A model generated the notes under the pieces. The model was not told the origin of the DNA. It saw only the letters and a list, made by a program, of their open reading frames with translations, and made no database searches. From a virus (taxonomy: Duplodnaviria > Caudoviricetes): a DNA stretch of 64,000 nt. Made by a program: the position numbers and the translations under genes. Positions 3,150-45,981 of the stretch are shown piece by piece. The stretch spans positions 45,930-109,929 of the IMG/VR virus record IMGVR_UViG_3300028805_000081. One strand, 5' to 3'. Numbering within the stretch: position 1 is the stretch's first letter; each line of letters begins with the position of its first letter.

Positions 3150-3884
3150 TTATGCGGTTTCTTCTTTGATATGGTCGATAATTTCAGCGTGTCCGTTATA
3201 ATCTATAAATATATCTGCATTTCCCGGTCTGCAATTAATCGGCATGATAATTGCAATTGAATTGCCGTTAATGAGTGCCGCCGGGCGTTTGTTCTCCTGA
3301 ATGTGAATTGTTTTTGCTTCTGTAAATAGCATAGCGTCAATTAAATAATCAAGTCTAACCACAATATTATTATTAATATTAACTTTCAACGGTTCAGATT
3401 TTAATTTTCTGTTGGTGCTTTTATACTGGGCTTTTAAGATCTTTTCAAGGGCTTTCAGGTTTTCAGGGCTTTGTAAATAGTCCTCCGTTATCATGTCCGA
3501 GATTGAATTTAAAGAACTTTGGAAAGTGTTTAAATATTCGCTTTTAACGTCTGTTTGTGTTTCGTGGTCAGTATAATTCATAGTGGCGTATAATCTCCAA
3601 GGACTCGCAAATATTTGATACTGTTCTATTGTAAACGGCTTCGTCATAAATTTCATTTGTTCGGCTCTGTCTTGCTCGCCTCTACAATAAAGTTTTTCAT
3701 AATTATTCAGGCTTTCGTCAAGTACATTTTTAATTGCTTTTATGCGTCCATTGCTGCCGGTTTTCTTCTTGTCTGCTTCTTCAATAAGTTCTGTTTGAAG
3801 GTCATTTATAATTGCCTGAGCTTCAAATAAATCATGATTTTTAATAACAATTGTTAGGCGTTCAATAAGTTTTTCATTTTTCAT
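3150..3884 (-). CDS. hypothetical protein, C-terminus resembling a beta sliding clamp domain III
   Basis: AAAGGATG RBS; YLIDAM...PAALI...IIMPI resembles DnaN C-terminal YLLDAL...P...LIMPV. Confidence 0.6.
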   Translation of the reverse strand: MKNEKLIERLTIVIKNHDLFEAQAIINDLQTELIEEADKKKTGSNGRIKAIKNVLDESLNNYEKLYCRGEQDRAEQMKFMTKPFTIEQYQIFASPWRLYATMNYTDHETQTDVKSEYLNTFQSSLNSISDMITEDYLQSPENLKALEKILKAQYKSTNRKLKSEPLKVNINNNIVVRLDYLIDAMLFTEAKTIHIQENKRPAALINGNSIAIIMPINCRPGNADIFIDYNGHAEIIDHIKEETA

Positions 3885-3979
3885 TTTAATTTCATCCTTT
3901 CATACTGTGCCGGGATCGCTCCGAGGCGTGTTTATCGCTTGAGGCTTTCCCGGCTGCTGTGGCTTCCTGATTGTTTATA

Positions 3980-5017
3980 TTATAATATCGGGTTTAATTC
4001 CTTTGTATCTGCACTGTATAACCAAACTTTATTGCTTAGTGTGTCATCACCTCCGAAAATTCTATTAGTTTCTGTCACGTTTCTTTTTATGTTTTCGGGT
4101 TCAATACTGCCTTTTTTATGTGTCATTGCTTCATGTACACTAGTAAACGCTAAATAAAAATCAGAATTACCATAGAGTTTTGAAATCCTTTCAAGCGTTC
4201 CCGGAAGGAATGCCGCTATTGCTCCGTTTGTCTTTCGGTCTGTTGTCAAGAGTGCAATTCTGTCCGGGTTCAGCTCTTTAACTGTATAGCCTTTTTCCAT
4301 TAATGCGCATTCTTTAAATGGTGCGCCTTCAATGTCAAAAATATTAGTGTATAATCTCGGCTTGTAAATTCTGTTTGTGTTTTCAAGTGCGTTATTCAAA
4401 ATTTCTTCGGTGGTCTTGCCCCATGTTTCTGTAATGATTTCCGGGACTTTGATTGTGTTTAAAATGCCGTTTCCCTGATCGTCAAGAACAATTGCGTATA
4501 ATGTTAGTGCAATATCACCGATTTTATTATAAATATTTCCGTTTAACTTGCTTGCATTAATGTCATAATTAAGTGGTCTTAATATTAAACGGTCTTTTAT
4601 ATTTTCGTACTTGTCGAGGCTGTTTGCTGTGTCGTTTGCCTGATCTCTGATAAAAAGTGCATACTTTATATTATCTAATACTGTTTTAATAACTGCGCTT
4701 TCTCCGGCTTCGTTGTAAAGCTTTTTCAGGCTGTCAACCTTTAAAAATACGCTGTTTTTTGGCTGCTCCGGTGTGATTGAGTATACAAACATACTTATTA
4801 AAAGGCTTTCGCTCTCGGTATCGTTGCAATACTTTTTATTAATCACCTTAAAAAGCTCTTTTTCTGCTTCTGTCTGTGGCTCTGTGCCTTTGTAATAGCT
4901 TGTTAACTCTGCACCTGTATCAAGTATATCAGCGTTATTCATAAGTAAATCAATAATATAATTATATGTGCTGTCTGCTGTGGCTGCTGTTGGTCTGTGT
5001 TCGTTGTGGTTTGTCAT
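3980..5017 (-). CDS. DUF5688-like protein
   Basis: GGAGG RBS; ALENT / TNGA / FYLAFTSVHE / LSNKV motif pattern. Confidence 0.7.
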   Translation of the reverse strand: MTNHNEHRPTAATADSTYNYIIDLLMNNADILDTGAELTSYYKGTEPQTEAEKELFKVINKKYCNDTESESLLISMFVYSITPEQPKNSVFLKVDSLKKLYNEAGESAVIKTVLDNIKYALFIRDQANDTANSLDKYENIKDRLILRPLNYDINASKLNGNIYNKIGDIALTLYAIVLDDQGNGILNTIKVPEIITETWGKTTEEILNNALENTNRIYKPRLYTNIFDIEGAPFKECALMEKGYTVKELNPDRIALLTTDRKTNGAIAAFLPGTLERISKLYGNSDFYLAFTSVHEAMTHKKGSIEPENIKRNVTETNRIFGGDDTLSNKVWLYSADTKELNPIL

Positions 5018-16722: not shown

Positions 16723-17757
16723 ATGAAAAGTAAGTTATTTGACAAAGCTTTTGATACGTATGTCTTAACACTCTCTGCGGTTAATCAAAAACGTATACCA
16801 AGATTACGGAAAAGCGTTGAGATGTTTGAGAGTCAAGGATATGATCTTTCTAAAATGACAAGATCGGAAGCAAAAGAATTATCCAGCATAATATGTGACG
16901 GACTGTCTTATACGTCTGCGGTTTCATATTGTGCAGTTCTTAACCGATTTCTTAAAGACGTAGAGGATCAAACAGGCAAACAATACGAAAAGGTTTATGC
17001 AACGAGAAGTGTAGTAAACTGTCCAACATATGCTTCAGAAGATCAATTTCTTGATGAAGTTGAAAATCAAATTGAAGCATTTACATCTGAGATGCAACGT
17101 GACAGAAATTTGAATGAGGAATTTACTCAGGAATACAGAAATGGTTTGAATTACATCGCTGTGTATTTAATTCTTAGATTTTATGGAATTACAGCTGATG
17201 AATGTGTGAACATTAAAATGGAAGATGTATCTGAAGAAAATCAAATCATTATTCTAAACAGAAACGGTAGACCGGTACTAAAGAAGTTTAATGATCGAGC
17301 GTGGAAACACATTTTAGATCTGAAAAATCAAACTTATGTAGTACATTTTTGGGCGCACATTATTAGAAATCCGCTGCCGAATACAGGTTATCTATTTAGG
17401 AATAATCGAGCAAAGAATAAAGCGGATTACAATGAGAAAAAGCCTATCAGTAAGATTCTGCTATCGTCTGCACAATACCGATTAACTAAAGGAAGTAATA
17501 TAAAAAAGAATTTATCTTTATCAGGAGCTTTTATTTCGTTCCCGAAAAGAATTAGTGATGCTAATGACTTATTAGACTATGTACATGATTATATCGGAGA
17601 TGAACCAATATCTGATGCATCTATTAAAAAGAACTGGTTGTTGTTTTTGGATTATGAAAACGAAATGATTAAGCAAGCCGAAGCGAAGAAAACGGCTCAG
17701 ACTAAGAAGAAGCCGGGAAGAAAGAGAGCTGGTAATGCAATAGCAACTACTAATTAA
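16723..17757 (+). CDS. tyrosine-recombinase-fold protein lacking catalytic residues; putative repressor
   Basis: SAM-like N-terminus; LRFYGITADECVNIKMEDV matches box I without the catalytic Arg; no HxxR. Confidence 0.6.
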   Translation: MKSKLFDKAFDTYVLTLSAVNQKRIPRLRKSVEMFESQGYDLSKMTRSEAKELSSIICDGLSYTSAVSYCAVLNRFLKDVEDQTGKQYEKVYATRSVVNCPTYASEDQFLDEVENQIEAFTSEMQRDRNLNEEFTQEYRNGLNYIAVYLILRFYGITADECVNIKMEDVSEENQIIILNRNGRPVLKKFNDRAWKHILDLKNQTYVVHFWAHIIRNPLPNTGYLFRNNRAKNKADYNEKKPISKILLSSAQYRLTKGSNIKKNLSLSGAFISFPKRISDANDLLDYVHDYIGDEPISDASIKKNWLLFLDYENEMIKQAEAKKTAQTKKKPGRKRAGNAIATTN

Positions 17758-18033: not shown

Positions 18034-18069
18034 TGACCAGTGATTTTAGATTGCTGGTCATTTCTATTT
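18034..18069 (+). terminator. intrinsic terminator
   Basis: TGACCAG...CTGGTCA stem followed by a T-rich tail. Confidence 0.75.
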
Positions 18070-18111: not shown

Positions 18112-18140
18112 TTGACAATCAGTTGGAACTGTGCTATACT
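18112..18140 (+). promoter_or_regulatory. sigma-A promoter of the ncRNA/tRNA locus
   Basis: TTGACA-17bp-TATACT with TG extension; operator copy at 18078-18094. Confidence 0.85.
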
Positions 18141-18146
18141 ATTATC

Positions 18147-18290
18147 AGTGGCAGAGAGATATGAGTTCTTGACAAGCCATTAAACCTCCATTTTACATAC
18201 GCAGATTAATATCTGCGACTTTCATATTCTTACCTCTTTTGTGTGTCGGGTTTTTACATGCGTGCGGTAAGATAGTTTTCCCGGCACACA
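18147..18290 (+). ncRNA. putative antisense sRNA 1 (two anti-SD/anti-AUG segments between hairpins)
   Basis: GCCAT-TAAA-CCTCC and CTTTCATATTCTTACCTC single strands flanked by stems such as CGCAGAT/ATCTGCG and TGTGTCGGG/CCCGGCACA. Confidence 0.6.
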
Positions 18291-18296
18291 ATATAC

Positions 18297-18368
18297 TGCG
18301 GTATCGTCTAATTGGTAGGACAAAAGAATTTGGATCTTTTAGTTAGGGTTCGAGTCCCTATGCTGCAA
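18297..18368 (+). tRNA. tRNA-Gln(TTG)
   Basis: Full cloverleaf; anticodon loop ATTTGGA; TTCGAGT T-loop; no encoded CCA. Confidence 0.85.
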
Positions 18369-18369
18369 T

Positions 18370-18465
18370 TCATGAGTTACAGTTTTTCATACAATCTCTA
18401 TCATCCCTAAAAAGCTACTGTGACTCATGACTGTTTTAATTTATTTCTTTCTTTTTGTAGACCTC
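18370..18465 (+). ncRNA. putative antisense sRNA 2 (long hairpin plus U-rich tail)
   Basis: TCATGAGTTACAG / CTGTGACTCATGA stem with an anti-RBS loop. Confidence 0.55.
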
Positions 18466-18466
18466 A

Positions 18467-18500
18467 TGTGTTGCTCCGGTTCGACTCCGGAGTGATGCAA
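18467..18500 (+). ncRNA. tRNA minihelix (acceptor stem + T-arm only)
   Basis: TGTGTTGC-TCCGG-TTCGACT-CCGGA-GTGATGCA continuous stem capped by a TPsiC-type loop. Confidence 0.7.
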
Positions 18501-18595
18501 TCATTACCTAATACCTGTTATTCATGGTAAACTCCTATTCAAATTAATCATGGGATTATGGACAGATCCCAGCATATTGTAGTATGTCAAAGTCC
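18501..18595 (+). ncRNA. putative antisense sRNA 3 (two tandem antisense domains, two 3' hairpins)
   Basis: TCATTACCTAATACCT and ACCTGTTATTCATGGTAAACTCCT match the initiation regions of genes starting at 8251 and 3041. Confidence 0.6.
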
Positions 18596-18596
18596 G

Positions 18597-18656
18597 TTGA
18601 AGTTATGGTACTGGCGTGCGGTTCGTCAGATTCGGTTCGACTCCGGATGCTTCAAT
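18597..18656 (+). ncRNA. D-arm-less tRNA-like element
   Basis: TTGAAGT/GCTTCAA acceptor stem; CTGGCG/CGTCAG arm; TTCGG-TTCGACT-CCGGA T-arm; no D-arm. Confidence 0.7.
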
Positions 18657-18875
18657 CAGGAGAAGGGGAATATCTTCTTTAGTCTGAAGTCTTAGTGCGC
18701 ATAAGATTTAATACAGATAGACACCTGTCGTAATACATGATGTTGCGTGATGTATAATTCGTGCCACGTTGAGTTTGATAAAATGCTTTTCTCAGTTCTT
18801 CGGAATAAAAAACGCAATATGTGGTTTAAACGGAAGGCTTTTTTCACAGAATAAAAAATAAAAGCCTCACACAAT

Positions 18876-18949
18876 GGGAATTTAGCTCAGTTGGTTAGAG
18901 CACCTGACTGTTAATCAGGGTGTCACTGGTTCAAGTCCAGTATTTCCCG
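18876..18949 (+). tRNA. tRNA-Asn(GTT)
   Basis: Canonical cloverleaf; CTGTTAA anticodon loop; G73 discriminator. Confidence 0.93.
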
Positions 18950-18953
18950 TTAG

Positions 18954-19117
18954 TTGCTCCAGCTATCGTGTTGGTTTGAAATTAGCCACATTCGTGTGTA
19001 AAAGAGAACTTCAATTAAACCTTCTGATGAAAACACCGGTTAAGTAGTCGGAAGCTTGCTTTCACATAATCGCCCAGCTATGGTGAGAAGTTCTGTTAGC
19101 TATTGGTGTGGAGGCAA
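18954..19117 (+). ncRNA. unknown multi-stem structured RNA
   Basis: Nested stems TTGCTCCA/TGGAGGCAA, AGAACTTC/GAAGTTCT and CTTCTGAT/GTCGGAAG, plus a UUCG hairpin. Confidence 0.55.
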
Positions 19118-19123
19118 GTATTT

Positions 19124-19206
19124 GGCGGGGTAGTTTAACAGTAGAACATCCGGGAATCTATAATAGATATTCACGGAAAACGGTGGTGCGACTCCACCCC
19201 CTTTCT
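19124..19206 (+). ncRNA. tRNA-like element with an extended anticodon arm
   Basis: D-arm GTTT..GAAC and T-arm GGTGG-TGCGACT-CCACC; anticodon arm is a long stem without a 7-nt loop; weak acceptor stem. Confidence 0.6.
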
Positions 19207-19225
19207 TCAGAGGAAACCACATAAC

Positions 19226-19280
19226 AGTCCCGTTCTTTAAGAGATGCAGCAATGTGTGTGATTCGTTTCGCACCGGGACT
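19226..19280 (+). ncRNA. miniature cloverleaf tRNA-like element
   Basis: AGTCCCG/CGGGACT acceptor stem, two tiny hairpins, and a GTGTGA-TTCGTT-TCGCAC T-like arm. Confidence 0.55.
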
Positions 19281-19322
19281 CTTGTAGATTGTCACCTTTA
19301 TTCATTTAAGGAAGTGTTATAA

Positions 19323-20066
19323 TTGAATATTTTAAAGATTTCAGGAAGCAGATTTGAAGAAGTCATCGCTGATGTTCAGAAAGAACTGGGTATCAGGAGA
19401 ACTAATAATTATGATGATTTCAACAATTCAATTAAAAAACTTATTCGTCCGGAAAATTTCTTATTCAATTCCTATGTTCTTAGAATTGATGGATTTGAAT
19501 ATAAGGTAAACAGGTTGGAAAATACATTCAGCTATGGTACTACCGACAAAGCTTTTATTCGAGTTAAGATTGATGCTAAAGATGCTAAAAATGCTATTTA
19601 TACTGCTACTGAAGTGTCGGGTACTCTTTATGATGAGTTAAGAAAGAAAAGAGATATGCCTAAAAGCAAGAAGAACGATATGATGACTGAAGGAGTTTAC
19701 AACACAGTTATCCCAGTTATCTGCTTTGAACGTTATATCATGCAGCTCATGGAGTCCCGGAACGTTACTACAGTGGATCTTGAAAAAGTTCAGACTATAG
19801 TCAAGACCAGTAAACCGGGGAATAAGGCTAAGAAGAAAAACAAGCCAAGAGTTACTAAAGAAATAACACTTAATTTTAAGGACATTGAAAGAGTTGTGTA
19901 TTCACGTCCTGAATTACCGAGAACATACACACATCACGTTGAGTCCTTTGATGTTGCCGGGCATTACAGACACTATAAATCCGGTAAGGTTGTGTTTGTA
20001 AAAGGCTATACAAAAGGAAACAAGGATGCTAAAATATCTGATAAAACCTATAAAATAAATCTCTAA
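19323..20066 (+). CDS. hypothetical protein with basic C-terminus (VAGHYRHYKSGK)
   Basis: TTG start after AAGGAAG; 247 aa. Confidence 0.8.
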   Translation: MNILKISGSRFEEVIADVQKELGIRRTNNYDDFNNSIKKLIRPENFLFNSYVLRIDGFEYKVNRLENTFSYGTTDKAFIRVKIDAKDAKNAIYTATEVSGTLYDELRKKRDMPKSKKNDMMTEGVYNTVIPVICFERYIMQLMESRNVTTVDLEKVQTIVKTSKPGNKAKKKNKPRVTKEITLNFKDIERVVYSRPELPRTYTHHVESFDVAGHYRHYKSGKVVFVKGYTKGNKDAKISDKTYKINL

Positions 20067-45642: not shown

Positions 45643-45981
45643 ATGAGAATGACAATTGCAGAAGCAGAAGAATATATATCAGAAAACCTTGAGGACATAA
45701 CTGAATTTATCCTTGAAGATGAAGATGATCACGCAATCATATTGTATAGTCCCGGATATGAAATCCCGGATTACAATATAGTCTGTTACGAAGGCTATTG
45801 GTATGATAAAGCTGAAGATCAGGCAGACTTCTCTTTGACAGCTATATTTAAAGATGGTGAGTTTGATTATTGGGAACAGGATTGTATAGCGGTCACACTT
45901 CATAATTACTTTACAGAACAGGGTATAGATATAGATGTTTATTCACTTCAATGTGAGATAAAGGAAGGATTTATAGAATGA
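45643..45981 (+). CDS. very acidic hypothetical protein
   Basis: AAGGAG RBS. Confidence 0.75.
   Translation: MRMTIAEAEEYISENLEDITEFILEDEDDHAIILYSPGYEIPDYNIVCYEGYWYDKAEDQADFSLTAIFKDGEFDYWEQDCIAVTLHNYFTEQGIDIDVYSLQCEIKEGFIE

Follow-up and report, generated by a model that had tools for sequence, protein, structure and literature searches.

Non-canonical tRNA-like folds in plant mitochondria, the t-elements, direct cuts by RNase P and RNase Z at the ends of mRNAs (Forner et al. 2007, PMC1920247), and they are the closest described analogue of a set of folds carried by a bacteriophage. The phage folds lie in a gene-free cluster of about 1.2 kb within a 64,000-nucleotide stretch of viral DNA (positions 45,930 to 109,929 of IMG/VR record IMGVR_UViG_3300028805_000081; hereafter the window), where two real tRNAs, tRNA-Gln and tRNA-Asn, stand among four reduced tRNA-like folds: a minihelix, a fold without a D arm, a fold with an over-long anticodon arm (19124-19206) and a mini-cloverleaf. 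The t-elements and the phage folds have in common an acceptor stem and a T arm with the motif GGTTCRANYCC, a position directly flanking mRNAs or other RNAs, and a location beside real tRNAs doing an equal job. Cutting of t-elements by RNase P and RNase Z has been proposed and partly shown, whereas that of the phage folds is predicted here; furthermore, the phage folds belong to a bacteriophage and not an organelle, bring several reduced architectures together in one 1.2-kb cluster, and have no sequence relationship to t-elements.

Other known RNAs share some of these traits. The mascRNA and the MEN-beta tRNA-like RNA (RF01684) form cloverleaves of about 55-60 nt with a stunted anticodon arm, lie at the end of a longer RNA and are cut by RNase P and RNase Z, but they belong to eukaryotic nuclear long non-coding RNAs, and the RF01684 model does not match the phage folds (its single match, at 18.3 bits against a gathering score of 42.5, falls on tRNA-Gln). 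Two non-tRNA phage RNAs, M3 RNA of phi80 and the C4 antisense RNA of P1/P7, are processed by RNase P (PMC11143913). The minihelices used as model substrates of RNase P, helices of about 12 bp with a T-loop cap, represent the minimal accepted shape and resemble the phage minihelix; these, however, are laboratory-made, and M3 and C4 occur as lone RNAs, while the phage minihelix is natural, conserved and placed in a tRNA cluster. The tRNA region of phage T4 is likewise a large-phage tRNA operon that also yields two extra stable RNAs through tRNA-processing enzymes. Among public phage records and plasmids, the sole match to the region was tRNA-Asn. In the literature searched, conserved reduced tRNA mimics have not been described for phage tRNA clusters, nor has a conserved natural minihelix for such a cluster in a Firmicute-type phage. 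What is new is thus the presence of reduced tRNA mimics in a phage cluster, the mechanism itself having clear precedents.

Conserved pairing in three of the reduced folds

A first-pass annotation of this DNA, made by a model from the letters, had described the two tRNAs and four reduced folds, and all six are confirmed by ARAGORN, Rfam and single-sequence folding, which gives each described shape; the reduced folds are real and not chance products. Its term "graded series" suits the shapes, which are real, but is descriptive only, as no fold derives from another. Four copies of the T-arm motif GGTTCRANYCC are present in the window, all of them on the + strand between 18347 and 18938; 0.17 copies are expected in the 64 kb, and none of 100 shuffles reaches four. 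The minihelix and the D-arm-less fold carry this motif (an identical 15-nt T-arm string is found at 18477 and 18633), and the mini-cloverleaf and the fold 19124-19206 have degenerate T-loops, UUCGUU and UGCGACU. An acceptor-like stem on a T arm with a T-loop motif, as in t-elements, is present in the reduced folds, and a canonical 7-nt anticodon loop with U33 and a conserved anticodon is absent from all four, the loops of the mini-cloverleaf having only 3-6 nt. Only the fold 19124-19206 passes the gathering score of the tRNA family RF00005 (35.7 against 29 bits); 18467-18500, 18597-18656 and 19226-19280 have no match to it even at E <= 10 with permissive filters, and no Rfam family besides tRNA was matched at the locus. 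ARAGORN and Rfam detect no tmRNA in the window or the whole contig. The VIPR guide RNAs (vrRNAs) consist of alternating GGY/NN motifs (bioRxiv 10.64898/2026.04.26.720920), and no run of at least three GGY at a 5-nt period occurs on either strand of the window, which rejects such an array.

Relatives were retrieved with the open reading frame (ORF) downstream of the cluster, 19323-20066, as anchor; its homologues, from uncultured relatives, grade from 96% down to 40% identity. The complete intergenic region was obtained from eight relatives (L014, L016, L018, L019, L021-L023 and L025) and its 3' part only from nine more. Across these sequences the minihelix, the D-arm-less fold and the mini-cloverleaf keep their pairing by compensatory changes while the spacers diverge, and the T-loops are invariant next to spacers rich in indels.

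The minihelix consists of 13 bp under the 7-nt T-loop UUCGACU and lacks an anticodon arm; it folds at z = -5.6, and none of 200 shuffles folds equally well. In alignment A4, which holds four distinct sequences, 98% of the cells are paired and nine of the 13 pairs show double-sided change, a result not reached in any of 500 shuffles; sliding the partner strand out of register lowers the pairing to 35-56%. The T stem reads TCCGG/CCGGA, ATAGG/CCTAT, AAAGG/CCTTT and GTTGG/CCAAT in the four lineages, and the T-loop and the 12 nt 3' of the helix are invariant. This pattern shows that the minihelix is under selection for structure. The corresponding covariance model, R2, finds no copies besides its training sequences. 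The helix might also be read as an aminoacylatable mini-tRNA, an alanine acceptor recognised through G3:U70 and A73. Minihelices with G3:U70 are substrates of AlaRS, and if the acceptor is taken to be 7 bp long with G18468 as its first base, the window, L021 and L025 all have G.U as third pair, with A as the base that follows the stem. That numbering is assumed, however, L023 has U-A at the pair in question, no CCA is encoded, and to our knowledge no function exists for a charged minihelix; such a role is regarded as very improbable.

In the D-arm-less fold, a loop of 7 unpaired nt containing AUGGU replaces the D arm, and 18597-18656 folded alone gives z = -1.2. Alignment A5 (six sequences) is 98% paired, with double changes in two pairs (A-U/G-C and U-A/A-U swaps), and RNAalifold unaided returns exactly the proposed structure; column identity is 85%, far above that of the flanks. 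The anticodon-like loop varies freely among relatives (UGCGGUU, UGUGGUU, UGGGGUUG and UAGGGCU) and has G at the U33 position. Model R1, made for this fold, finds no copies besides its training sequences. The retained structure points to selection here as well.

The mini-cloverleaf folds into a four-way junction at z = -2.9. Its alignment A3, with nine distinct sequences, is 96% paired (100% in the acceptor and T-like stems) and shows double-sided change in ten of 20 pairs, which none of 500 shuffles equals, and RNAalifold, uninstructed, gives three of the four helices: the outer, the D-like and the T-like. Moreover, model R3, built from A3, detects the mini-cloverleaf in L076 and L077 (69 bits) and in L075, all of them outside its training set and with an ORF just 40% identical. 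No second copy was found in the contig. These data show selection for structure in the mini-cloverleaf too.

The fold 19124-19206 behaves differently. It has 21 nt where RF00005 has nine positions around the anticodon, giving a 12-bp arm with a 3-nt loop, and a C.U mismatch interrupts its acceptor stem, which also has two G.U pairs; GG is missing from the D-loop, and the T-loop is non-canonical. In a BLAST search of all fetched DNA, the segment 19122-19225 occurs only in the window and L017, and the alignment is ambiguous between insertion and deletion; nine relatives (L009-L013, L015, L016, L019 and L020) have 10-26 nt in its place. The L017 copy differs at two positions, one of which breaks a pair. 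This fold may therefore be a degenerate or decaying tRNA copy, that is, a pseudo-tRNA. A promoter-like TTAACA-18-TATAAT (11 of 12 matches) lies within it at 19135-19164, with the -10 box in the extended anticodon arm, and is kept in L017; the downstream operon may have gained a promoter when the fold was inserted. The ORF of L017 is 70% identical to that of the window and its upstream 410 nt are 97% identical, while L009, whose ORF is 96% identical, lacks the fold, a mosaic pattern that implies recombination near the ORF start.

Plain pseudo-tRNAs, remnants in a tRNA cluster of fast turnover that are conserved through recent common descent, could be proposed for the reduced folds as a whole, given the changing tRNA content of the relatives and the imperfect pairing, loops and restricted distribution of 19124-19206. 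The other three folds, however, stay paired through double-sided changes while the spacers become unalignable, where neutral decay would break them, and it is not credible that exactly tRNA positions 8-48 were lost by chance and a 12-bp helix was then kept through nine compensatory changes. Neutral decay of the stems in relatives, which the first-pass annotation had linked to simple pseudo-tRNAs, is excluded by covariation for three of the four folds, 19124-19206 being the exception; the neutral reading is ruled out for those three by their conserved pairing, is plausible for 19124-19206, and as a general explanation is quite improbable.

Layout of the cluster in the window and its relatives

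The features of the cluster are collected in Table 1. Between the ORF end at 17757 and the ORF start at 19323 there is no credible coding sequence, and every relative has a gene-free gap of 1.1-2.2 kb at the equivalent place.

Table 1. Features in and around the RNA cluster, in window coordinates
Feature	Position	Strand	Description
Terminator-like hairpin and T-run	18034..18060	+	Closes the upstream unit; L021 equivalent at 2599-2625
Strong sigma-70-type promoter	18112..18140	+	TTGACA, 17 nt, TG-extended TATACT; 11/12 matches with TG
Structured leader	18147..18296	+	Hairpins 18200-18217 and ~18239-18290; z = -3.7
tRNA-Gln (UUG)	18297..18368	+	ARAGORN; Rfam 56.9 bits; no encoded CCA
Long hairpin	18370..18456	+	14 bp in the window, then invariant TTTTAATTTATTT; z = -4.3
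tRNA minihelix	18467..18500	+	Acceptor-like stem stacked on T stem, 12 conserved bp plus 1; T-loop UUCGACU at 18480-18486
Minihelix 3' trailer	18500..18511	+	AATCATTACCTA; identical in all six aligned sequences
D-arm-less tRNA-like fold	18596..18657	+	8-bp invariant acceptor, 6-bp anticodon-like arm, 6-bp T arm
tRNA-Asn (GUU)	18876..18949	+	ARAGORN; Rfam 71.1 bits; no encoded CCA
Block X	18951..19121	+	Conserved structured RNA of ~170 nt; starts 1-2 nt after tRNA-Asn in the window's clade
tRNA-like fold with 12-bp anticodon arm	19124..19206	+	Cloverleaf, z = -0.9; Rfam tRNA 35.7 bits
Mini-cloverleaf	19226..19280	+	55 nt; 7-bp acceptor, 3-bp D-like hairpin, weak anticodon-like hairpin, 6-bp T-like arm, loop UUCGUU
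Conserved 5' untranslated region of the downstream gene	19281..19322	+	C, then TTGTAGATTGTCACCTT, then ribosome-binding site AAGGAAG at 19308-19314
Downstream ORF	19323..20066	+	247 aa, function unassigned, PHROG 10678; first gene of the replication-side operon

The exact site that the mini-cloverleaf occupies in all other relatives is taken in L021 by a tRNA-Thr (ARAGORN; 57 bits in Rfam). This tRNA is flanked 5' by the end of the conserved block X, ...GTGGAG, and 10-20 nt, and 3' by C-TTGTA.ATTGTCACCTT and the ribosome-binding site; it shares with the mini-cloverleaf the first pairs A-U and G-C and the C after the stem, which is followed by TTGTA.ATTGTCACC. The junction with the 5' untranslated region (UTR) is the same after the mini-cloverleaf in all relatives and after tRNA-Thr in L021. 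In L025, an insertion of ~230 nt (3761-3990) parts the mini-cloverleaf from the UTR; the last ~20 nt of the cloverleaf and the start of the UTR are duplicated at its far end, and the segment looks like a mobile insertion with target duplication. Because of the replacement by tRNA-Thr and the 230-nt displacement, a specific operator or aptamer is disfavoured, since it would tolerate neither, and a generic tRNA-shaped signal would tolerate both. Within the UTR, CACCTT (19293-19298) can pair with the ribosome-binding site of the downstream ORF, a potential kept in L021, where the site is AGGGGAG.

Upstream of this site, block X keeps 82-86% identity in its core (19000-19113) in L021, L023 and L025, though it stands there among different tRNAs; CTCCA at its 5' end is able to pair with TGGAG at its 3' end, and no Rfam family matches it. 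In every relative, block X is followed after 3-26 nt by the fold 19124-19206, the mini-cloverleaf, tRNA-Thr, tRNA-Asn or tRNA-Trp. At the head of the region, the promoter listed in Table 1 recurs at 2687-2715 of L021 and 2316-2344 of L025, and no further + strand promoter of the region is both strong and conserved.

The leader contains an anti-Shine-Dalgarno-like motif, AAACCTCC, at 18182-18189, and similar CTCC motifs occur in the leaders of L014, L018 and L076. A second motif of this kind, ACTCCT, is found at 18531-18536; both lie between structured elements and would fit small RNAs (sRNAs) that mask ribosome-binding sites. Directly after the leader, where the window's clade carries tRNA-Gln, a fifth reduced architecture appears in L014 (3226-3275), L018 and L076: a three-way fold (z = -2.5) made up of an acceptor of 6 bp, a single 4-bp hairpin and a T arm of 7 bp that ends in the loop UUCAAUU. 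The long hairpin that follows tRNA-Gln keeps its position, with unrelated sequence, in the window, L021, L023 and L025; it could be a terminator or attenuator and resembles an intrinsic terminator in L023 and L025.

The tRNA content itself differs among relatives: the window has Gln and Asn, L021 Gln, Met and Thr, L023 Gln, Met and Asn, L025 Gln, Asn, Trp and Lys, and L014 and L018 have others, whereas tRNA-Gln is almost unchanged across the six relatives aligned. Phage tRNA clusters are often tied to defence evasion, and the location of the reduced folds in so variable a cluster (Gln, Asn, Met, Thr, Trp and Lys among relatives), together with the selective retention of the acceptor/T-arm half alone, would suit decoys or sponges for host factors that bind the top half of tRNA, such as defence toxins that cut or modify the acceptor end, the CCA-adding enzyme or EF-Tu, which would protect or rewire the tRNA pool in infection. 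Against such a role, anticodon nucleases and T-box sensors require an anticodon loop, which is absent or freely variable here, no gene for tRNA repair (RtcB) or CCA addition was found in the 110-kb contig, which is 60% complete, and single copies offer little titration capacity unless very highly expressed. Decoys of this sort are consequently considered improbable, and the narrower alternative of the first-pass annotation, decoys for anticodon nucleases or sensors of uncharged tRNA, is disfavoured because the anticodon loop is missing or variable among relatives.

Proposed processing signals, or possible uncleaved modules

The preferred reading, held with a confidence somewhat short of even, is that of a promoter-driven non-coding RNA cluster in which tRNA mimics act as cut marks for RNase P and RNase Z. 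Real tRNAs and miniaturised mimics would be transcribed jointly with other structured RNAs, the mimics being reduced to an acceptor stem stacked on a T arm and its T-loop, the part of a tRNA that RNase P and RNase Z of the host read. They would then be cut at their 5' and 3' edges as tRNAs are, releasing the RNAs that lie between them, and the cut at the mini-cloverleaf would set the 5' end of the downstream mRNA. The folds, the selection on three of them and the replacement by tRNA-Thr are observed, and co-transcription of the whole region and the cuts themselves are what we infer from them. The punctuation role fits because a tRNA-Thr is swapped in at the mini-cloverleaf site of L021, because block X is always followed by a tRNA or look-alike, and because a single promoter heads the region. 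In addition, since the real tRNAs in the stretch lack CCA, RNase P and RNase Z must already cut there if the region is one transcript; in Firmicutes, RNase Z cuts CCA-less precursors directly after the discriminator (PMC8549757), and RNase P cuts them at the 5' end.

A wider form of this reading is held more tentatively. It describes a family of uncultured phages of the Clostridia type with a tRNA-punctuated non-coding RNA operon, in which at least three independently miniaturised mimics (minihelix, D-arm-less fold and 55-nt cloverleaf) would replace tRNAs as cut marks for RNase P and RNase Z, sRNAs with anti-Shine-Dalgarno-like seeds would be released, and the 5' end of the replication-module mRNA would be defined. 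The first-pass annotation had already proposed that the folds are processing signals releasing sRNAs, and this fits the structural selection on three folds and the positional pattern; it fits less well with 19124-19206, an indel that shows no evidence of selection, and with the possible terminator after tRNA-Gln.

Several observations weigh against processing by these enzymes. The hairpin and U-tract after tRNA-Gln are conserved in structure and terminator-like, and if they end transcription, the folds beyond would depend on read-through or on a promoter that escaped recognition. The indel that holds 19124-19206 is recent and lineage-specific and shows no sign of selection. The stacked helices have 13-14 bp against the canonical 12 and the T-loop of the mini-cloverleaf only 6 nt, so that efficient recognition by RNase P and RNase Z is not guaranteed. 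The covariation of the D-arm-less fold is statistically weak (matched by 12 of 500 shuffles), because the acceptor stem is constant and double changes are confined to two pairs, and every alignment holds few distinct sequences (4-9). Finally, the invariance of that acceptor stem and of the minihelix trailer suggests a sequence-specific role beyond that of a cut mark.

These last features would also suit folds that stay uncut and serve as structural modules within a long leader or within sRNAs: helices protecting RNA ends, binding sites for a phage or host protein that recognises a T-loop helix, or elements controlling read-through or translation of the replication operon. The mini-cloverleaf lies always ~40 nt upstream of the ORF start and adjoins a UTR able to mask the ribosome-binding site, a terminator-like hairpin stands inside the region, and the anti-Shine-Dalgarno-like motifs are found between the folds. 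The L021 replacement and L025 displacement, as described above, speak against a specific aptamer or operator; in addition, excision of the real tRNAs in the same stretch would break up the RNA in any case. Uncleaved modules are therefore judged unlikely, and tRNA mimics acting as cut marks are retained as the preferred reading.

Source phage and significance

The source is an IMG/VR viral contig of 109,929 bases, estimated to be 60% complete. The DnaE-type polymerase that it encodes shares 51% identity with that of Clostridium phage c-st and 46-47% with those of phiCD211-type phages, and neighbouring genes are integrase-like, HNH, Sak4-like, helicase, primase and RecJ-like; on the strength of these identities and genes, the source is taken to be a large temperate phage, or a phage-plasmid, with a Firmicute host and of the type of Clostridium phage c-st and phiCD211. 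An IMG/VR search with the two flanking ORFs returned no relatives, a scan of IMG/VR with a 15-nt UTR motif gave 49 chance hits and no relatives, and a scan of GTDB species genomes found none. Relatives found through the Sak4-like gene (L002-L008) have replication genes in common with the window but no tRNAs or similar non-coding region, and a metagenome scan yielded mainly distant partial matches, only L075-L077 being useful. Numerous Logan contigs of relatives (L009-L013, L015, L020 and L024) break off inside tRNA-Asn, which probably reflects assembly failing where other genomes of the sample carry the same sequence, and not a biological end. Outside the window, at ~30740-32227 of contig G000 (L160 664-2151, - strand), a gene adjoining a ClpP-like gene and a tRNA-Met encodes a metallo-beta-lactamase nuclease of 495 aa with Beta-Casp and RMMBL (RNA-specificity) domains, a possible candidate for a phage RNA-processing enzyme.

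If the wider reading is true, the operon would be the bacterial-virus counterpart of mitochondrial t-elements and mascRNA. Should the cuts be real, stripped-down tRNA shapes would be portable cut marks read by essential host enzymes, giving phage sRNAs and mRNAs a maturation route that is missing from current phage annotation and from Rfam. This would explain both how sRNAs in phage tRNA clusters acquire defined ends and why such clusters hold conserved sequences that tRNA finders have overlooked. Such shapes would also provide compact natural processing tags for engineering. Moreover, the minihelix, the D-arm-less fold and the mini-cloverleaf, together with the three-way form of the relatives, constitute a natural series bearing on what RNase P and RNase Z require in vivo.

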